Below, one piece after another: positions 39,088 through 52,703 of a stretch of 54,048 nucleotides of DNA; position 1 is the first letter of the stretch; the number at the start of each line of letters is the position of its first letter. A model generated the notes under the pieces. That model was not told where the DNA came from. It worked only from the letters and a program-made list of their open reading frames with translations, and searched no databases. The DNA is taken from positions 1-54,048 of the forward strand of contig DATDUD010000020.1 in assembly GCA_036517735.1 (NCBI GenBank). The letters are read 5' to 3'. Source of the stretch: Minisyncoccota bacterium (GTDB lineage Bacteria; Patescibacteriota; Minisyncoccia; Phycocordibacterales; Phycocordibacteraceae). The translations under genes and the position numbers were made by a program.

Positions 39088-39360
39088 ATGACAGCCAAAA
39101 GATTTCCCAAGGTGCTGAAGTCGGTTGGAGTAAGCGATTTTCGCGCAGAACTTTCGCACCACCTCGCCAGAGCGAAGCGCCAGCCTCTCGTTATATCCGA
39201 AAGACGTGGAAATGAGACGTATGTAGTGCTTTCAGCCGATGACTACAATGTCCTAGTCGAGGCTCGCGAAGACGCTATCGATGCCCGCGAACTTACCCGT
39301 CTTGTTGAGAAGAACCAAAAGGCGAAATTTACATCCTGGAAGTCCGTGCGTTCCCACTAG
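39088..39360 (+). CDS. Phd/YefM-type antitoxin
   Basis: VSDFRAELSHHLARAKRQPLVISERRGNETYVVLSADDY is a typical Phd/YefM N-terminus. ATG lies 6 nt after TACAAT. Lies directly upstream of a RelE/ParE toxin gene. Confidence 0.75.
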   Translation: MTAKRFPKVLKSVGVSDFRAELSHHLARAKRQPLVISERRGNETYVVLSADDYNVLVEAREDAIDARELTRLVEKNQKAKFTSWKSVRSH

Positions 39361-39369
39361 CTTGCGCAC

Positions 39370-39630
39370 ATGTTTCGCATTGGATTTGCGCCATCGGCGA
39401 GCAAGGAGTTCAAACGGTTGCCAAAGGCCGCAAAGACATCCATAGCCGCCCTGTTGGATGGCCCCTTTAGCCAGGATCCGTATTCGCGCGCGCTTCCAAC
39501 AAAGAAACTCCGTACGCCTTTCCCAGGATACCGTCTTCGTTGTGGTGAGTACCGCATTCTCTATACGATCGAGGATACGTATATCAAAGTCTATTCCGTC
39601 CGGCACCGAAAGGATGCATACCGCCAATAA
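39370..39630 (+). CDS. RelE/ParE-family toxin
   Basis: FAPSASKEFKRLPK...YRLRCGEYRILYTIEDTYIKVYSVRHRKDAY matches the RelE/StbE fold signature. Confidence 0.85.
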   Translation: MFRIGFAPSASKEFKRLPKAAKTSIAALLDGPFSQDPYSRALPTKKLRTPFPGYRLRCGEYRILYTIEDTYIKVYSVRHRKDAYRQ

Positions 39631-45714: not shown

Positions 45715-46803
45715 ATGCACATACAAGCAATTCAACAGACACATCTGTACGCATTTCTCATTGGAGCTGCGTTTCTTATCGCAAGCTTCATCCCTCTAAC
45801 TGCTGCCGCAGCGAGCAAGAGGCCAACCTGCTCGCTTAACATAACGACTGAGGCTGGGGAAGCAAAGATAACCAAAGATGGCGATATCATCGTCCTTAAG
45901 GGAGAGGAATTCGAGGTCAAGTGGACCGGAAAGAACGCCGAGGAAGCCGAATTAAATGGTGAGGAAATTGATGTCTCGGACAGTGACGAATTTGCTCCCA
46001 CCAAGGCCACTACGTACGAATTCGTATTCAAGAGCGGAAGCCGCAAGGCAACCTGCGAAGTGACCGCACATGTCGTAGAGGCCGAAATCGAGACGACTTC
46101 CGCCAAGAAAGGCAAACCAACCATCAAAGGAACGGCTGACGGTCTCAAAAAGGTTAACGTTGGCGTATATACAGAAAAAGGAAAGAAAGTATTCGAGAAG
46201 AAGAATGTCTCGGTGAGGCGCGGCAACTGGTCCGTAAGGTCGAGCAAGACTTTAAAGGATGGTGAGTACGAGATTCGTCTTATGGGAGAGAAGAAGTACG
46301 AATTGAATGAGATTATGACCGGAAAGCTCACCATCGGCGAAGGCGAAAAGGATTCTGAAAATGGAGACGACTCTGACGGCATCATCTCCGTAAGTACTCT
46401 TCCTCTTCTTAGTGGAGGAACTATCCGTGCAGGCGAGACAAAGCCCGTCTCGTACCTCTATCTTCGCAACACCGGAAAGGAAGCTGTACGAGTTACAGGC
46501 TTTGATGTGAAGCAAAACGGGACGGCTAACGCGAGCGCCATCACCGGGCTCTCGACCGTCGATGACAAGGGAGGATCCCGCGGCGCCTCGAGTGTAAATC
46601 CTTTTAAGAACGGGATTGGATTTGCCCCAACAAACGCAGTCATCGAGCCAGGTGCGCTGAAGCTCTTCACCATCAAGGCAACGCTTGGTACAAACATATC
46701 GATTGGTACGAACCTGAAGCTTGATGTGACCGGCATTAAGACTAACGGATCGGAGAAGGCCACCTTCCCTCTGCGGGGTACGACCTGGACGATCGGAGGG
46801 TAA
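45715..46803 (+). CDS. secreted/cell-surface hypothetical protein with beta-rich (Ig-like) repeats
   Basis: ATG lies 6 nt after TATACT (45703-45708). N-terminal hydrophobic signal (LYAFLIGAAFLIASFIPLTAAAA). Lys/Glu/Thr/Gly-rich, beta-strand-like sequence. Confidence 0.75.
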   Translation: MHIQAIQQTHLYAFLIGAAFLIASFIPLTAAAASKRPTCSLNITTEAGEAKITKDGDIIVLKGEEFEVKWTGKNAEEAELNGEEIDVSDSDEFAPTKATTYEFVFKSGSRKATCEVTAHVVEAEIETTSAKKGKPTIKGTADGLKKVNVGVYTEKGKKVFEKKNVSVRRGNWSVRSSKTLKDGEYEIRLMGEKKYELNEIMTGKLTIGEGEKDSENGDDSDGIISVSTLPLLSGGTIRAGETKPVSYLYLRNTGKEAVRVTGFDVKQNGTANASAITGLSTVDDKGGSRGASSVNPFKNGIGFAPTNAVIEPGALKLFTIKATLGTNISIGTNLKLDVTGIKTNGSEKATFPLRGTTWTIGG

Positions 46804-46836
46804 CCTATCCACCACTAGTGGTGAGTATTTAGGAAG

Positions 46837-46865
46837 ACGTCCCGGACTTATCCGGGACGTTTTCT
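46837..46865 (+). terminator. rho-independent terminator
   Basis: ACGTCCCGGA-CTTA-TCCGGGACGT followed by TTTCT. Confidence 0.8.
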
Positions 46866-47103
46866 ATATCTCGGTAAGACGGGAGTAGCGGGGAAGTGGT
46901 ATCCGAGATTCTTTAAGGAATCAATAAGTGGGCCATTTTCAATCTCGGTCAATTTTAAGAATCTCAACTACGGAAGAAGTAGCAACTACCTAAAGTCTAC
47001 GGAAATACCAAGAATAGTTAGCAATTAGTAGAAAGAACTAAGGATATAGGGCCTTTACCTAAATTGTATAAATAGAAGGCTCATTTATAAGTACAACGCG
47101 AAA

Positions 47104-47128
47104 CAGATATTGTGCGAAGTATAAATAT
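47104..47128. repeat. 25-nt direct repeat, copy 1 (CAGATATTGTGCGAAGTATAAATAT)
   Basis: Identical 25-mer at 48121-48145. About 55 nt downstream shows looser homology (CTCAAG, CTTTAA.T.GGG, TCCCCT). A shared TATAGGGCC lies 50-63 nt upstream. Confidence 0.9.
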
Positions 47129-47367
47129 AAACCTCAAGATAGGCCTTATCCCACTTTAAATAATGGGATACTCCCCTCTTAATGCGTTCAAATTAACTTT
47201 GCTCAACACTCGTGCACACATTCTCTTCTACGCACCCATACGAAAATTATTTTCGTATATAAGGCGACAGGTAAGCCACTTCCCCGATGAAGTAACTGGG
47301 GTAGTGGGGAGCATGTCTAGATCGCTCTAGGTACCTATCCCTGGCTCCCCTGCCCTCCTTCAACCCT

Positions 47368-47384
47368 GAAAATTGGATGTGTCT
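47368..47384. repeat. inverted repeat, left arm (GAAAATTGGATGTGTCT)
   Basis: Its reverse complement matches 47881-47899 (AGACACACATCCAATTTTC) except for a 2-nt CA insertion. Confidence 0.85.
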
Positions 47385-47543
47385 GCTAGTGCCGTATGAT
47401 GGTGTTAAGGCAACCCTTGAGAAAGGTTGTCCGTTCACCAAGTTGGTGAGTCCAAATGCCATATCCATTACCATGGATACTCTTGCCCTCCTTCTCGTCC
47501 TTCTGATATTGCGAGAAACGAATAAGGGCTAATATCAGGCACT

Positions 47544-47570
47544 ACGCTCCCCTTACCGGGAGCGTTTGTG
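47544..47570 (+). terminator. terminator-like hairpin inside the non-coding island
   Basis: ACGCTCCC-CTTACC-GGGAGCGT followed by TTGTG. Confidence 0.5.
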
Positions 47571-47727
47571 CTCAGGTATACTGACACCAGATCTTGATAA
47601 CCCCAGTGGCCGTCTCAAGTAAGGCGACGGAATTATGGTGGGAAAGACCAACAACGCTGACGCCGCCCGGCGTGCGGCATCTTCCCCGCACGCCATAAGT
47701 CCGTTACAAACTAAGCGATACCACACA

Positions 47728-47838
47728 ATGCCCAACAGCAAACATGTAGTACATCGCGACAGTGGAACCGGTAAGTTCGTTACTGAAAAGTACGCGGACA
47801 AACATCCCAAGACCACTGAGCGCGAGATAGTTCCGTAA
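47728..47838 (+). CDS. possible 36-aa conserved-looking small protein
   Basis: MPNSKHVVHRDSGTGKFVTEKYADKHPKTTEREIVP. The R-D-x-x-T-G-x-F-V...A-x-x-H-P-x-T-T pattern resembles small proteins I recall from mobile elements. Unverified. Confidence 0.4.
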   Translation: MPNSKHVVHRDSGTGKFVTEKYADKHPKTTEREIVP

Positions 47839-47880
47839 GGAACGGCGAGCTGCCTCTTGAGGCGGCCGCTAGAGTTATCA

Positions 47881-47899
47881 AGACACACATCCAATTTTC
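47881..47899. repeat. inverted repeat, right arm
   Basis: Pairs with 47368-47384. The arms enclose about 500 bp. Confidence 0.85.
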
Positions 47900-48120
47900 A
47901 AAGTTGAAAGAAAGCTACCCCAAAGCAAGAAATCGTGTTCCTGTCTGGACAACACATTCGCTGTTGTGCGAACAGGCCATTACTTCCCTACCCTTTTGTG
48001 TCTTAGGTGGGAAATTTTTTAATTTATCCATCTAGAAACCCTTATTTCTATAGGGCCGTACGGCGCCCTCGTAGGACAGCGAAGATACAACCTTTTTCAT
48101 ACAATCGAGCTTCGTAGGGC

Positions 48121-48145
48121 CAGATATTGTGCGAAGTATAAATAT
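48121..48145. repeat. 25-nt direct repeat, copy 2
   Basis: Identical to 47104-47128. On the minus strand it reads ATATTTATACTTCGCACAATATCTG and so contains a TATACT box. Confidence 0.9.
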
Positions 48146-48373
48146 CCAAGCAGGCTCAAGTCTTTAATTGGGCTGAGTCCCCTTCTGTCAGCGAAAAATT
48201 CGCTGACTTTGAGCGATCTCCGTTTTGTACCTCTACTCCCCTCTGTAGAGGGTTTTATATGAAGCACACTATCGCTCCCGCGGTGGCGCTGATGCAGCGA
48301 GAGAGGGATGGCGGGGAATAGGTAGCGTATGTACTCGGGTTTTGGGGTATTTATTTCTGAGTTCCCTGCCCCA

Positions 48374-48661
48374 CTAGCTCTCCTGCATGTAGTCCACAAC
48401 AATGCTAATGATCTTCTGGACTGTTTCTGTGCAGTTCTTAAAGGTAATTCGGTCCAACACATTAGAACCGTAGATCCTTATCGGGTCGCTAATGAGTGCG
48501 TGAATGAATGATTGGGTTGTCCCATCCACGTTATCGAAGTTTAAAACCACCTCTTCTCCCCTCTCCAAAGCAGGAATTATCTTCTCGAGTCTTAACGACT
48601 GAGCTAAGTCTTTGTTTTCTGCAAATGAACCTGCGGATTCAAGTAGGTTTAGAGTTATCAT
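48374..48661 (-). CDS. STAS-like DUF4325 domain protein (95 aa)
   Basis: ENKDLAQSLRLEKIIPALERGEEVVLNFDNVDGTTQSFIHALI matches the DUF4325/STAS-like pattern. Lies 3 nt downstream of the ATPase gene. Confidence 0.85.
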   Translation of the reverse strand: MITLNLLESAGSFAENKDLAQSLRLEKIIPALERGEEVVLNFDNVDGTTQSFIHALISDPIRIYGSNVLDRITFKNCTETVQKIISIVVDYMQES

Positions 48662-48664
48662 ATT

Positions 48665-49636
48665 TTATTCAAATTTAGCTACCCTCTTATATCGATTTTC
48701 TTTCCGCTCCCTAATTGCCTTACCGTAGGTATCTCTAATCAGATCAAGAAGTGCATTGAACTCATCTGTTGAGTCTAGAGAGATATCGATGCCAATTACG
48801 GTACCATGCCACTGAGGCATGTTCGCTTTTTCAGAATGACGATCTAGGTTTGCATTTGCGTTAAGCGTAAAGGATCCATCATTTTCGTCCTTCCTTTTCA
48901 AAAGCTTGTACATTGCATTTCCACTGTAGATTACAAAGAAATTATGTTTCGTAACTGCAATAGATTTAATAAAGAATAGTCCCGCCCCTGCGTTTAGTGC
49001 AGTACCACCTTCTCTTGAAGTTGTTCCTGTAACACCCGGGGTCAGTGACAGCTTGATTGCGTCTAGATCGTCATTAGTGCGATGAGATCGGCTCAGGCTT
49101 GCGCGAATACCAATACCTGTATCCGCTATTCCTAGTCGAATAATATTGCTCTTCTCGAAATACTGTGCACACAGAATTGCGCCGTTATCAGATCTTGAGT
49201 GCTCAAGTACATTTCTTGCAAGCTCGCTAATTATGTAACGTATAGGTTCTGCTTGTCTTGGTTCAAGATGGAGCATGGGGACCATCTCTGTAATGAATCG
49301 TGTAAGGTCTTCAGAGTTACGAATTTGGGTCAAAGGAATAAACCTCCCAGAAGAGTCATGCTCCGTAATATCCATGCCGGACTCCACTCCAAGAAACTTA
49401 AAAAGTCCCATCCGTTCTAGATAATGGCCTGATCTTGCCTTGATTTTGGGGCAAGTAACCCTACCCTTTTCAAGGGTTAATGCTAGAGAAGCAATCATGC
49501 TGAGAGCAACTGGATGTAACCACATCCAGTTTTCAACCGCCGTAATATCCAACTTATCTGGCTCTGAAGGATCAAACCCATTTAAAAATTGGTCTATATT
49601 ACCCAGGAAAGCGCCATTTGGTAGATGAATCTTCAC
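48665..49636 (-). CDS. GHKL (HATPase_c) ATPase/kinase-like protein with unknown N-terminal domain
   Basis: N-box IISELARNVLEHS, G1 box GIADTGIGI, G2 box NAGAGLFFIK. The N-terminal ~130 aa are unassigned (WLHPVALSMIASLAL, YLERMGLFKFLG). GTG start lies 9 nt after TATACA on the minus strand. Confidence 0.85.
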   Translation of the reverse strand: MKIHLPNGAFLGNIDQFLNGFDPSEPDKLDITAVENWMWLHPVALSMIASLALTLEKGRVTCPKIKARSGHYLERMGLFKFLGVESGMDITEHDSSGRFIPLTQIRNSEDLTRFITEMVPMLHLEPRQAEPIRYIISELARNVLEHSRSDNGAILCAQYFEKSNIIRLGIADTGIGIRASLSRSHRTNDDLDAIKLSLTPGVTGTTSREGGTALNAGAGLFFIKSIAVTKHNFFVIYSGNAMYKLLKRKDENDGSFTLNANANLDRHSEKANMPQWHGTVIGIDISLDSTDEFNALLDLIRDTYGKAIRERKENRYKRVAKFE

Positions 49637-49687
49637 CCGGGAATTGTATATTATTTATAAATAAGCTGCAATCTCTATAATTCCCGG
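49637..49687. promoter_or_regulatory. 9-bp inverted repeat bracketing the ATPase promoter
   Basis: CCGGGAATT (49637-49645) and AATTCCCGG (49679-49687) flank a 33-nt AT-rich spacer. The spacer contains the minus-strand TATACA box. Confidence 0.45.
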
Positions 49688-49908
49688 TATTTTAAGCCAT
49701 ATTTTCCTAAAAGCTACTTCGCACGACCCCAACCTAATCCCCCAGTCCTTTACTGAACCTCGAACTTAGCTCCCCCCAACTGCGTTCCCAACATACCGAG
49801 CAAGCGTATATCCTCCAATAAGAACGGATGATCTAAATCTAAAGAAAAAATAGATACATAACAGCAATACGTTTGCGTTATCCACTCCTAATAGCAGCCT
49901 GTTGGCGC

Positions 49909-51156
49909 ATGTTCGGCCATAACCTTAGGTCTATGGTTATAGAGCTAAGCAGTGGTATTAAAGACTTGCGTGAGCTGTCCAGAAAGCCTCTTTCTGGACA
50001 CAATCTTTCTTCTGCCACATCAGCGCTTGACTCGCTCATAGCCATTGCCTGCGATGCTGAAGCCTCCGATTTGCACCTTGATCCAACCGAGACAGTTATT
50101 CTTGTACGCATTCGAATCGACGGACATCTTGAATCTTATGAGTCTCTCCCTAAGAAAATACACTTAGAACTTATTGCCCGCATCAAGGTACTTGCCGGAT
50201 TGCGTACTGATGAACACTTTACTCCCCAGGATGGCCGGTTTTACTACACTCAGAATGATGGAAGTAGGATAGACATCCGTCTTTCTATAGCACCTACTTA
50301 TTATGGTGAGAATGCGGTCTTGCGTTTTCTTGCTCCAACTCGACACGCGCTTTCGAATTTAGGGTTTTCTAACGTGCACGAGGCGCAGCTTGCCGACCTA
50401 CTTTCGAGGTCATATGGAATGCTTCTCGTCTCGGGGCCAACCGGGAGCGGTAAAACGACGACTCTCTATTCCCTTTTGCGTCTCATTGCTCAACGACCAC
50501 TTTCTCTCGTCACGATCGAAGACCCAATTGAGTACTCGATTGACGGAGCTGTCCAGATACAAGCGCGTAAGGGATTCTCTTTTGCTGACGGCCTTAGAAG
50601 CATTCTTCGACAAGATCCGGATGTAATTATGGTTGGTGAGATACGAGACGAGGAAACTGCGGGATTGGCAACGAATGCCGCTCTCACCGGACATCTAGTG
50701 TTTTCGACACTGCACGCAAACGATGCTCCCGGAGTTTTGCTTAGGCTTATGGATCTCAAGGTTGAGCCCTTTCTTATTACGTCGACGATTTCCCTTATTG
50801 TTGCCCAGAGACTTGTCAGGAAAGTTTGTGTGATCTGTGCGATTGAAGAGGAAATCAGTTTGACTGAGTATAATCAGCTTTCAAGATTATTTGACACTGA
50901 GATCCCGAAGCGCGTGGTGCGCGGTGGTGGTTGTGATGAATGTGACGGTAGCGGGTATCGGGGACGCATCGGCATATATGAACTGATGGAGATAAATCAG
51001 GAAATGCGTGAAGCGGTTCTTGCGAAAGTGGGTGCAGAGGAGCTCCGCATGCTTGCCCTCACGGCAGGCATGGCGCCCCTGCTGGCAGACGGCCTTTCCA
51101 AGGTCGCTCAGGGACTAACTACTTTTGAGGAAATACTTAGAACCCGATATGCATAG
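49909..51156 (+). CDS. pilB: type IV pilus / type II secretion ATPase (GspE/PilB family)
   Basis: Walker A GPTGSGKTTT, Asp box, Walker B DPDVIMVGEIRD, His box TGHLVFSTLH, tetracysteine CVIC...CDEC. The start is uncertain (ATG 49909 or 49933). Confidence 0.92.
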   Translation: MFGHNLRSMVIELSSGIKDLRELSRKPLSGHNLSSATSALDSLIAIACDAEASDLHLDPTETVILVRIRIDGHLESYESLPKKIHLELIARIKVLAGLRTDEHFTPQDGRFYYTQNDGSRIDIRLSIAPTYYGENAVLRFLAPTRHALSNLGFSNVHEAQLADLLSRSYGMLLVSGPTGSGKTTTLYSLLRLIAQRPLSLVTIEDPIEYSIDGAVQIQARKGFSFADGLRSILRQDPDVIMVGEIRDEETAGLATNAALTGHLVFSTLHANDAPGVLLRLMDLKVEPFLITSTISLIVAQRLVRKVCVICAIEEEISLTEYNQLSRLFDTEIPKRVVRGGGCDECDGSGYRGRIGIYELMEINQEMREAVLAKVGAEELRMLALTAGMAPLLADGLSKVAQGLTTFEEILRTRYA

Positions 51157-52243
51157 GGTTGCGAACATGTTTGATGTGATCTGGAGAAAAAGAGAGCTGC
51201 GCATGCGGCTTACGGACCGGATTCACCTGTACAGCCGCCTCTCGCTCTATCTTCGTTCTGGCATTCCAATCCGGGAAACTCTAGGCCTTATATACGGATC
51301 CGCAAGAAAAAAGGGTGACATCCACATTTTGAGACAGGTAGAAAAGGCGGTGTTGCATGGGACATCTCTTGAACACGCGCTTGGCTCTTTTCCAAATGCC
51401 TTTCCCGCCTTCGAAACTCACCTTATCGGAATTGGAGAACATAGTGGTTCTCTTCCGCAAAACCTGGCATATCTTGCTTCCCTGCTTGTACGGAGACGTA
51501 CGCTTGTTCGCAAGCTGCGTGGGGCGCTTTTGTATCCCTGCGTCATCGTACTCGGGACGATATCCGTAACGTCCTTTTTGCTTCTATACACATTCCCAAA
51601 GATAGTGCCTATATTTGAAGGTCTTAATACTCCCCTTCCCCTCTCGACTCGTTCACTTATTCTGATCTCGACCCTTGTTACTGAACACGGACTCATTGTG
51701 TTCCTGTCTTTTTGCACCTTAAGCGCCTCTATCTTTTGGCTTACACGTCTCCCACAGGTACCACGTTATTTCGAACGTATGACCCTGCGCACTCCCCTCC
51801 TTAAAGAGCTTGTACGCGGGTACAACCTTGCCCTTATCTCACGTACCCTTTCTACTCTACTGGCAAGCGGCATTACGCTTGTTGCAGCACTCGAACATGT
51901 CGGGAGTGGTATTCGGAATAAGGAGTATCGAGAAGCTCTGAAAGATGTCGGAAACCGGATTAACGAGGGGCGGCGTCTATCAGTTGCGTTTGGTGTCTAT
52001 ACAATGCTTTTTCCGCATACATTCGTGGAACTTATCGCTGCAGGCGAATCGACAGGCATGCTCAGTTCAAGCCTTAGAACGAGCGCTGAAGCTTATGAGG
52101 AGGAGCTTGACGAAAGTACGCGCATCCTCGCCACCCTTATTGAGCCGGGACTCATGATTGCTATGGGTCTTCTGGTGGGGTTCATTGCAATGGCCATCAT
52201 CACGCCGATATACAGCATTACTCAAAACGCAACGTTCCGCTGA
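51149..52243 (+). CDS. pilC: type IV pilus / T2SS platform protein (GspF/PilC family)
   Basis: Two T2SF repeats and three TM helices. Overlaps the pilB stop by 8 nt. Confidence 0.9.
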   Translation: MHRVANMFDVIWRKRELRMRLTDRIHLYSRLSLYLRSGIPIRETLGLIYGSARKKGDIHILRQVEKAVLHGTSLEHALGSFPNAFPAFETHLIGIGEHSGSLPQNLAYLASLLVRRRTLVRKLRGALLYPCVIVLGTISVTSFLLLYTFPKIVPIFEGLNTPLPLSTRSLILISTLVTEHGLIVFLSFCTLSASIFWLTRLPQVPRYFERMTLRTPLLKELVRGYNLALISRTLSTLLASGITLVAALEHVGSGIRNKEYREALKDVGNRINEGRRLSVAFGVYTMLFPHTFVELIAAGESTGMLSSSLRTSAEAYEEELDESTRILATLIEPGLMIAMGLLVGFIAMAIITPIYSITQNATFR

Positions 52244-52244
52244 T

Positions 52245-52703
52245 ATGAATCGTTCAAATCATCAAGCATTCACGCTTATCGAGGTTCTATTAGTTATTTC
52301 CCTTTTGGCAATCATTAGCAGCTTATCAGTGTTCGCTGGGAACGACAGCTATCAACGGGCACTTGCCGCAAACGACATAGAGCGCATTGTTAGTGTTCTC
52401 TACCGCGCTCGGAGTCTTGCTCAGGGAAGTGTCTGCAGCATTCAGCCTTGCGAGGAACCTAAACTCCAGGGAGTTCGTATAGAGCAAGGAGAAGTGTGGT
52501 TATTTGAAGGTAGCCAGTACGAAGAAGATACTGTAGTTGAGACATTTCTTTTAAGCGATGGACTTACTGTTACTCCTATGACGGTATTCTTTCTTCCACA
52601 CACTGGAGCGGCTACCGCCAACAAAACTATTAAAATACGGGATGCGTTTGGGAGAGAGCGGTCCATTGTGGTAAGCGAGGCGGGTGTTATTTCTGTAAAC
52701 TGA
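52245..52703 (+). CDS. prepilin-type N-terminal cleavage/methylation domain protein (pseudopilin)
   Basis: MNRSNHQA-FTLIEVLLVISLLAIISS class III signal. ORF 52158..52703 trimmed to ATG 52245, 1 nt after the pilC stop. Confidence 0.8.
   Translation: MNRSNHQAFTLIEVLLVISLLAIISSLSVFAGNDSYQRALAANDIERIVSVLYRARSLAQGSVCSIQPCEEPKLQGVRIEQGEVWLFEGSQYEEDTVVETFLLSDGLTVTPMTVFFLPHTGAATANKTIKIRDAFGRERSIVVSEAGVISVN

Follow-up and report, generated by a model that had tools for sequence, protein, structure and literature searches.

A pair of adjacent minus-strand genes in a 54,048-nt stretch of DNA from a Minisyncoccota bacterium (contig DATDUD010000020.1; this whole stretch is referred to below as the window) encodes a 323-aa protein with a GHKL-type ATP-binding core, which we call K, and a 95-aa STAS-like protein of the DUF4325 family, which we call S. 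The K-S pair is probably an autonomous, horizontally mobile kinase/substrate switch of the CapK-CapS/VapK-VapS family with a role in stress or defence. The pair is homologous to these systems, the kinase motifs of K are intact, K and S are adjacent wherever they occur and fused in other lineages, no third gene is conserved beside them, and the module has moved between domains of life. By analogy with the homologues, K would be the kinase of S and single-stranded DNA (ssDNA) or DNA damage its cue. An earlier note, made from the letters of this DNA, stated that no function had been assigned to such a pairing; this is outdated, as the homologous CapK-CapS and VapK-VapS-VapC systems were characterized in 2026 as kinase/substrate switches of anti-phage immunity that ssDNA activates (PMC13373217). 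CapK-CapS and VapKSC were thus already known, and what is new here is an effector-less, unusually conserved, cross-domain version of the pair; our literature search found no paper on effector-less K-S pairs.

Homology of K and S to the CapK-CapS and VapK-VapS kinase systems

CapK and VapK are both Ser kinases that, once activated by ssDNA, phosphorylate a partner protein with a STAS domain (Chambers et al., EMBO J 2026, PMC13373217). CapK is composed of helix-turn-helix (HTH), STAS, and GHKL kinase domains, and CapS is a repressor composed of a STAS domain and a winged HTH (wHTH); when ssDNA activates CapK, CapS is phosphorylated at S54 and the downstream immune operon is de-repressed, and the CapK substitution N218A abolishes activity (PMC13373217). 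In the VapKSC system of Escherichia sp. [quoted passage not shown] The ssDNA lies in a groove between the STAS-like and GHKL domains, where it is contacted by CapK W68, VapK F54, and the basic residues K237/K239 of CapK, and the phospho-acceptor (CapS S54, VapS S48) is a Ser/Thr that is absolutely conserved and with which the second STAS helix begins (PMC13373217). PIN.4 VapC genes coupled to DUF4325 genes have also been reported (PMC5499597).

For comparison with the window proteins, the sequences of VapK, VapS, and CapK were taken from the supplementary AlphaFold 3 models of PMC13373217. A profile of the K family matched CapK residues 1-303 with an hhalign probability of 98.1% (E value, 7e-14) over residues 25-185 of the window K, from the STAS-like domain through the G1 box, and matched VapK with 96% (E value, 3e-9) over residues 91-286. 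The N-terminal domain of K on its own matched the N terminus of VapK (84%; E value, 8e-6), and global MAFFT alignment joined K and VapK end to end, with an identity of only ~25%. The same domain fell in STAS register with SpoIIAA, although weakly (E value, 1e-3; probability, 22%), and a weak Pfam STAS_2 match was seen in the corresponding N-terminal domain of one fused homologue (P0362). The earlier note had left the first ~130 aa of K unassigned; given the CapK/VapK homology, they correspond to the STAS-like domain of the CapK/VapK-type kinase family. A paralogous relationship of this domain to S was also considered and rejected (hhalign probability, 1%). When the S profile was compared with all PDB sequences, the best match was Escherichia VapS (9z7o), and S aligned with VapS at a probability of 84% (E value, 7e-6); the K profile found only chance matches among the PDB sequences. 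Judged by these alignments and the motifs described below, the K-S pair belongs to the CapK/VapK-CapS/VapS superfamily.

Pfam matched K to HATPase_c and HATPase_c_2 over residues 109-232 (E values, 3-5e-4, below the gathering thresholds), and no NCBIfam family matched K or S. The AlphaFold2 (AF2) model of K, built with 30 homologues, has a mean predicted local distance difference test score (pLDDT) of 83.5 and a predicted TM-score of 0.85 and divides into three parts, namely, an N-terminal alpha/beta domain, a GHKL core, and a C-terminal extension (Table 1). In an alignment of 30 homologues, E138/N142/H146 of the N-box, D172/G174/G176 of the G1 box, and G217/G219 of the G2 box were invariant. 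The N-box surroundings, S-E-L-A-R-N142-V-L-E-H-S in K and S-E-L-I-G-N-V-R-D-H-S in CapK, agree nearly letter for letter, and the E-x3-N-x3-H spacing is that of SpoIIAB, VapK (E156/N160/H164), and CapK (E214/N218/H222). The N-terminal domain carries a near-invariant P-N-x-A-F-L-G-N-I-D motif together with W37-x-W39-L-H-P, and W39 aligns with the ssDNA-contacting F54 of VapK. K162, in a beta-hairpin aligned with the K237-K239 region of CapK, is near-invariant, and the ATP-lid loop at residues 207-210 is modeled at low pLDDT. In a Foldseek search of the PDB with the K model, the best-covered targets were SpoIIAB chains (TM-score, 0.59-0.68, normalized to the target); ATPase domains of the type II topoisomerase/GyrB type had similar or slightly better E values, and UsfX and RsbW came next. 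Foldseek searches of viral structures returned only generic phage GHKL proteins. Pfam detected no DNA-binding domain in either K or S.

S matched Pfam DUF4325 above the gathering threshold (E value, 8.5e-13) and matched neither STAS nor STAS_2. The GHKL and DUF4325 assignments of the earlier note were therefore borne out, by this match for S and by the AF2 model, the SpoIIAB neighbors, and the invariant motifs for K. S comprises a STAS domain only, with no wHTH and no C-terminal tail of the VapS type. Its T49-Q50-S51 patch, at the N terminus of the second STAS helix, is also invariant in single-chain fusions of K and S (T369-Q370-S371, within a TQSF motif), and the S homologue of a Marinitoga phage reads T-H-S-F at this position.

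Of the two characterized systems, VapKSC is like the K-S pair in that K has a STAS-like N-terminal domain and a GHKL kinase with no HTH, as VapK does, S has the same DUF4325-type STAS as VapS, the K gene comes before the S gene, and the whole is a mobile cassette. The two differ in that no VapC/PIN gene is found at the window locus or as a conserved neighbor in 80 related loci, that S lacks the C-terminal inhibitory tail and has only 95 aa against the 116 aa of VapS, that VapK is without two elements of K, an insertion at ~250-268 and a basic helix at the C terminus, and that the phospho-Ser column is Gln in S, with a Thr and a Ser on either side of it. CapK is homologous to K across the STAS-like and GHKL domains, has a near-identical N-box, and is likewise followed immediately by the gene for its STAS partner. 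In contrast to CapK-CapS, K lacks an HTH at its N terminus, S lacks a wHTH DNA-binding domain, and the DNA downstream of K-S contains no immune operon, be it CBASS, Bub, Thoeris, or another.

PADLOC has no dedicated model for the two-gene or fused form of K-S, and its only match was to the N-terminal part of a DrmA (DISARM) profile: residues 45-249 of K matched positions 49-251 of the 1750-position profile PDLC02567 (E value, 2e-16), and all K family members tested matched its first ~250 positions. The sensor-like combination of STAS-like and GHKL domains is therefore also fused N-terminally to some DISARM helicases. Unlike the long DrmA variant, K has no helicase or DUF1998 part, and no drmB, drmC, drmMI, or other DISARM genes are present at the locus; the match shows re-use of the domain and is no sign of membership in DISARM.

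Linkage, spread, and surroundings of the pair

In a protein collection clustered at 90% identity, K had 3038 homologues (~320 aa, 60-83% identity), the best 120 of which were all ~320 aa long and 61-83% identical to K and were named from Berkelbacteria, Zambryskibacteria, Sungbacteria, Nanoarchaeota, Omnitrophica, WOR-1, and Deltaproteobacteria. S had 1105 homologues at ~65-75% identity, and mean column identity was 73% for K and 76% for S. We also scanned one genome per species, ~185,000 genomes in all, by pattern and tblastn; a K relative was encoded in 430 stretches, and the best 80 of these (K 58-75% identical to the window protein) were used for all linkage and neighbor counts given below. 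About a third of the 80 loci came from archaeal metagenome-assembled genomes (MAGs) of Nanoarchaeota, Woesearchaeota, Micrarchaeota, Thermoplasmatota, and "Methanosarcinales," and the rest from the Candidate Phyla Radiation (CPR)/Patescibacteria, Elusimicrobia, Saganbacteria/WOR-1, uncultured Gammaproteobacteria, Planctomycetia, and others; the window bacterium and Nanoarchaeota/Woesearchaeota share 60-65% identity. A DUF4325 open reading frame (ORF) lay directly downstream of K on the same strand in 77 of the 80 loci, and the other three were contig ends. The two genes overlapped by 4 nt in 61 loci. Conservation of the two genes as neighbors, a check that the earlier note had proposed, is thus clear, and K-S adjacency is obligatory and translationally coupled. 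One Elusimicrobiota MAG (DATLSD01) contained two separate K-S loci (L068 and L090) in a single genome bin; the presence of several copies per genome is typical of mobile, toxin-antitoxin (TA), or defence modules.

This distribution bears on classical partner switching, in which K would be an RsbW/SpoIIAB-type anti-sigma kinase holding a distant sigma factor and S its antagonist. The earlier note had remarked on the resemblance to an anti-sigma kinase/antagonist pair, and the structural neighbors SpoIIAB and RsbW confirm it: K has the GHKL Ser-kinase fold with the E-x3-N-x3-H N-box, its best-covered structural neighbors are SpoIIAB chains, its partner is a small single-STAS protein, and K homologues are named "anti-sigma regulatory factor" by the Joint Genome Institute. 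However, K is a 323-aa protein with extra N- and C-terminal domains compared with compact kinases of ~140-160 aa, and its STAS-like N-terminal domain and C-terminal helix are missing from anti-sigma kinases; S belongs to DUF4325 and not to PF01740 or PF13466. As the earlier note had also said, no cognate sigma factor or PP2C phosphatase is nearby: none was found within 10 kb on either side, and none recurred among the 80 loci. Moreover, the pair occurs at 60-65% identity in MAGs of Nanoarchaeota, Woesearchaeota, Micrarchaeota, Thermoplasmatota, and Methanosarcinales, and bacterial sigma factors are not known from Archaea. Because of this archaeal distribution and the missing sigma factor and PP2C genes, a sigma-factor role is essentially excluded, and we regard it as extremely improbable.

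We then clustered up to four genes on each side of the module, and no neighbor family recurred in more than 5 of the 80 loci. The 146 immediate (±1) neighbors fell into 134 Pfam families, the commonest of which were phage integrase (four cases), RhuM, and Fic (two each); PIN, sigma-factor, and PP2C families were not among the 25 commonest ±1 neighbor families listed. In 39 of 74 cases the strand changed between K-S and the next gene downstream. The pair has genes for a tetratricopeptide repeat (TPR) protein and FtsK on its two sides in a WOR-1 genome, and alcohol dehydrogenase and fumarase genes in a deltaproteobacterium.

In the window, K-S and pilB are divergently transcribed from a shared 272-nt intergenic region (49637-49908), and the earlier note had suggested that the module might regulate the adjacent type IV pilus locus through it. 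The neighborhood counts do not agree with this: none of 80 metagenome loci containing PilB had K or S, and only 2 of the 80 K-S loci had a gene for a PilB-like ATPase within 10 kb. Neighbors in WOR-1, Deltaproteobacteria, and other lineages are unrelated, neither K nor S has a DNA-binding domain, and the module is foreign to the locus in GC content. The neighborhood statistics therefore exclude local pilus regulation, to which we give hardly any credence. With neighbors this varied and no link to pilB, K-S is a self-contained cassette, and its adjacency to pilB in the window is incidental.

A further explanation for a pair that stands alone is decay, with K-S as a former vapKSC operon that has lost VapC and is drifting toward a pseudogene, the ~1.5 kb of DNA without recognizable genes downstream of S being the remnant. 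However, more than 3000 K clusters and 1100 S clusters are full length with ~73-76% mean column identity, no third gene is conserved in the 80 relatives, and the S family uniformly lacks the C-terminal tail with which VapS inhibits VapC. The ORFs in the downstream DNA match neither PIN nor any other Pfam family. Since thousands of full-length pairs are strongly conserved, decay is excluded as an explanation; it is the last of the alternatives that we would entertain.

An exhaustive search of representatives at 50% identity returned 2613 relatives, including proteins of ~420-450 aa in which K is followed by DUF4325 in one chain. A search with one such fusion gave 404 clusters, with nearly all of the best 120 at ~420 aa; the hosts were Pseudomonas, Burkholderia, Paraburkholderia, Variovorax, Marinobacter, and others. 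These fusions, annotated "STAS-like domain-containing protein" or "ATP-binding protein," agree with the two-gene pair in their three domains, the order of these, and the TQSF motif, and they stand alone; they differ in being one polypeptide, ~37% identical to the window K, and in that some copies are in defence or mobile islands. The AF2 model of a fusion (pLDDT, 84.5) was dominated in Foldseek by GHKL ATPases, with Hsp90/TRAP1, topo VI-B, and GyrB at the head of the list. The linker to the STAS domain in the fusions is the counterpart of K residues 246-323.

The Pseudomonas canadensis fusion is flanked by genes for a CAP12-PCTIR TIR protein, a giant kinase-helicase, and HEPN_AbiU2, and the Burkholderia gladioli fusion lies beside a resolvase, GmrSD, and integrases; other fusions are beside an integrase or beside TacA/TacT. 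In P. canadensis (L093, 9011-11257) the CAP12-PCTIR TIR gene lies on the strand of the fused gene, 165 nt upstream of it. A further locus (L184, 6001-7260) shows an unusually close single-gene insertion, with the fused gene inside a fatty-acid beta-oxidation operon between the 3-hydroxyacyl-CoA dehydrogenase/enoyl-CoA hydratase and thiolase genes, on their strand and with gaps of 18 and 75 nt. More distant two-gene pairs were found on plasmids, some of them small, and in phages. In the temperate Marinitoga phage MPV1, the pair (MPV1_51/50; L181, 2992-4345) is immediately upstream of the serine integrase, in the integration module, where the two proteins are annotated "Histidine kinase" and "Putative anti-sigma factor"; a kinase sensing DNA damage at this place could contribute to superinfection exclusion or to the choice between lysis and lysogeny.

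These surroundings would also suit a selfish addiction cassette with no immune role, in which K would be a kinase toxin that arrests growth unless S restrains it and the pair would persist through post-segregational killing and horizontal transfer. The pair is compact and usually overlaps by 4 nt, it is inserted between unrelated housekeeping genes and even within operons, some genomes hold several copies, and it adjoins other TA pairs and integrases and travels on small plasmids and in phages. On the other hand, the enzyme-first order and 60-70% conservation across domains are unusual for fast-diversifying type II TA pairs, and the homologous VapKSC protects against a phage (PMC13373217). We consider a purely selfish cassette unlikely; it overlaps the stress or defence switch that we favor and differs from it only in the selective benefit.

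The K-S locus in the window

Both genes were found in the ORF list of the window, and the coordinates, sizes (323 and 95 aa), and 3-nt gap given for them in the earlier note were confirmed; the junction reads TAA-aat-ATG. The GTG start of K is supported by its homologues, which all begin with M[KR]IH at the same position. Coordinates of the features are collected in Table 1.

Table 1. Features of the K-S locus, with positions in the window; residue numbers are those of K or S.
Feature	Position	Strand	Details
K gene	48665..49636	-	323 aa, GTG start
K residues 1-105, N-terminal alpha/beta domain	49322..49636	-	AF2 secondary structure; equivalent of the VapK/CapK STAS-like domain
K residues 108-245, Bergerat-fold GHKL ATP-binding/kinase core	48902..49315	-	Pfam, Foldseek, invariant motifs
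K N-box, E138-L-A-R-N142-V-L-E-H146	49199..49225	-	Invariant columns
K G1 box, D172-T-G174-I-G176	49109..49123	-	D172, G174, and G176 invariant
K G2 box/ATP lid end, N215-A-G-A-G-L-F-F	48971..48994	-	N215 through F222 invariant
K residues 246-323, C-terminal extension	48668..48901	-	Beta-strands, insertion at ~250-268, long basic helix at 287-317 (KAIRERKENRYKRVAKFE)
S gene	48374..48661	-	95 aa, ATG start, single-domain STAS-like (DUF4325)
S T49-Q50-S51, candidate phospho-acceptor region	48509..48517	-	N terminus of second STAS helix; all three invariant
Intergenic region, K-S/divergent pilB	49637..49908	.	272 nt, probable K-S promoter region
AT-rich palindrome in the K-S/pilB intergenic region	49643-49672
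Terminator-like hairpin ~160 nt downstream of S	48200..48216	-	Consensus scan only
Inverted-repeat pair, outer	47356-47382/47885-47911		27 nt, 89%
Inverted-repeat pair, inner	47592-47619/47856-47883		28 nt, 86%

The K-S module has a GC content of 42.3% compared with 52.0% for the whole window and ranks 6th lowest of 1056 windows of 1263 bp (standard deviation, 3.1%; ~3 standard deviations below the mean). The AT-rich segment described in the earlier note is thus real, and the module is compositionally foreign. The region between K and pilB is the probable K-S promoter region; sigma70-like matches were present on both of its strands but were weak, rested on consensus only, and were no commoner than in shuffled sequence. 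The strong terminator that the note had placed near 46837-46865 as a boundary of the segment exists as a hairpin followed by a T-run (46833-46864), but it terminates the upstream plus-strand gene for a 362-aa protein. That protein (45715-46803) has only a weak Ig-like (Big_13) match. An Rfam match to RsaF over the same hairpin (46830-46927; 25 bits against a gathering threshold of 60; E value, 0.08) is almost certainly due to chance, and Rfam found nothing near the K-S locus.

The ~1.5 kb downstream of S (46866-48373) had been described as repeat-rich and non-coding. A Pfam search of its ORFs gave no match, PIN included, and so no sign of a decayed effector gene; the term "repeat-rich" applies only mildly, since the repeats in this region are one perfect 25-nt direct repeat and two inverted-repeat pairs, one nested in the other. 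The copies of the direct repeat (CAGATATTGTGCGAAGTATAAATAT; 47104-47128 and 48121-48145) are 1017 nt apart, show no further similarity in their flanks, and enclose the small-ORF/inverted-repeat unit and not the K-S genes. We rejected this repeat as a K-S insertion boundary, given that the similarity does not extend and K-S is not bracketed. Inside the inverted repeats (47356-47911), a 67-aa ORF (47635-47838, plus strand) is a gene call on the identical public contig and has no Pfam match. Its cluster is represented by a protein of 36 aa from a 640-kb NCBI contig, and the real gene may be perhaps only the C-terminal 36 codons. The inverted-repeat unit could be a small mobile or structured element.

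Within 10 kb on either side of K-S, the gene and Pfam table of the identical contig lists type IV pilus, metal resistance, glycosylase, peptidase, and tRNA synthetase genes and a ParE/Phd pair, and it lists no sigma factor, PP2C, PIN, or wHTH genes. The type IV pilus-like operon divergent from K-S (49873-52703 onward) has genes for PilB/T2SSE, PilC/T2SSF, and a prepilin-like protein of the N-methyl type and continues with ORFs that carry no annotation. The ParE-toxin/PhdYeFM-antitoxin pair, recognized by weak Pfam matches at ~39088-39630, is ~9 kb from K-S and is another small module of the mobile type. Metagenome contigs were also scanned with the window PilB for an empty site; all matches were below 50% identity, and no insertion boundary could be defined. 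These contigs supplied the PilB loci for the pilus comparison above.

A proposed K-S switch and its significance

In the switch that we propose, K and S would be made 1:1 from their translationally coupled operon and would bind each other. A stress cue would turn K on; in CapK and VapK this cue is ssDNA, bound where a groove separates the STAS-like domain from the GHKL domain. K would then move phosphate to S at the N terminus of helix 2, in the invariant T49-Q50-S51 patch, and phospho-S would change partner, so that the K-S interaction is switched. As for the output, the GHKL kinase itself would be the effector and S a pseudo-substrate lock or antagonist, giving a TA or abortive-infection switch. 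We favor the kinase as effector because the pair has no toxin or DNA-binding domain, the kinase is its only catalytic domain, the single-polypeptide form occurs in defence islands, and the module has been transferred between bacteria and archaea. Our second choice would be that S (or K), once freed, sequesters a cellular or phage target that is universally conserved and whose gene lies elsewhere.

Several points weigh against this proposal. Its output step is pure inference, and the kinase chemistry of the K-S subfamily is carried over from homologues. In sequence alignments of S, an invariant Gln (Q50) occupies the place of the phosphorylated serine of VapS (S48) and SpoIIAA (S58); T49 or S51 beside it would then need to accept the phosphate, or phosphorylation of S may not occur. 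Helix 2 starts at Q370 in the AF2 model of the fusion and at A47 in the HELIX record of the VapS crystal structure, so the register of the acceptor is uncertain by ±1. The column aligned with VapK F54 varies across the K family (W, F, S, I, and H), and ssDNA sensing may therefore not be general. Finally, PADLOC matches are few among immediate neighbors, and the neighbors in CPR and DPANN genomes are mostly housekeeping genes; association with defence islands therefore holds only for the fused proteobacterial relatives.

The invariant Gln would also be compatible with K being a GHKL ATPase that is not a kinase, namely, a clamp or chaperone that resembles MORC, MutL, or Hsp90 and works on nucleic acid, with S as its regulatory subunit. 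Topoisomerase ATPase domains match K with E values equal to or slightly better than those of SpoIIAB, the top matches of the fused model are Hsp90/TRAP1, topo VI-B, and GyrB, the C-terminal helix of K is strongly basic, and the PADLOC profile joins a related domain to the DrmA helicase. Nevertheless, the best target-normalized TM-scores are those of SpoIIAB, no transducer or S5-fold domain follows the Bergerat fold in the AF2 model of K, and the N-box S-E-L-x-x-N-V-x-x-H-S is common to CapK, which has been shown experimentally to be the Ser kinase of its STAS partner. A clamp or chaperone in place of a kinase is, in our judgment, quite unlikely.

Between the two guesses of the earlier note, a mobile conflict- or defence-type sensor module and a pilus regulator, the former is the better one and fits the evidence best. 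We tentatively put forward the more specific possibility, which we hold to be short of probable, that the K-S pair or its fusion is a self-contained immune or TA system, in which the kinase effector would act on a target common to bacteria and archaea or on a phage protein and S would be a lock freed by a nucleic-acid danger signal. If true, K-S would be one of few conflict modules that move almost unchanged among CPR bacteria, DPANN and other archaea, and free-living phyla.

In CapK-CapS and VapKSC, the kinase/STAS pair is a sensor attached to a separate output, a repressor domain or a PIN toxin, whereas the K-S family is far larger and has no recognizable output. If K-S works alone, either the GHKL kinase is itself the immune or toxin effector or the bare STAS protein acts on a universally conserved target, and either outcome would extend the emerging kinase-based branch of prokaryotic immunity. 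The culturable hosts of the fused homologues make experiments on K-S feasible and the question of output tractable through the proteobacterial fusions, and K-S would be a testable handle on the conflict systems of CPR and DPANN organisms, in which few defence systems are known.

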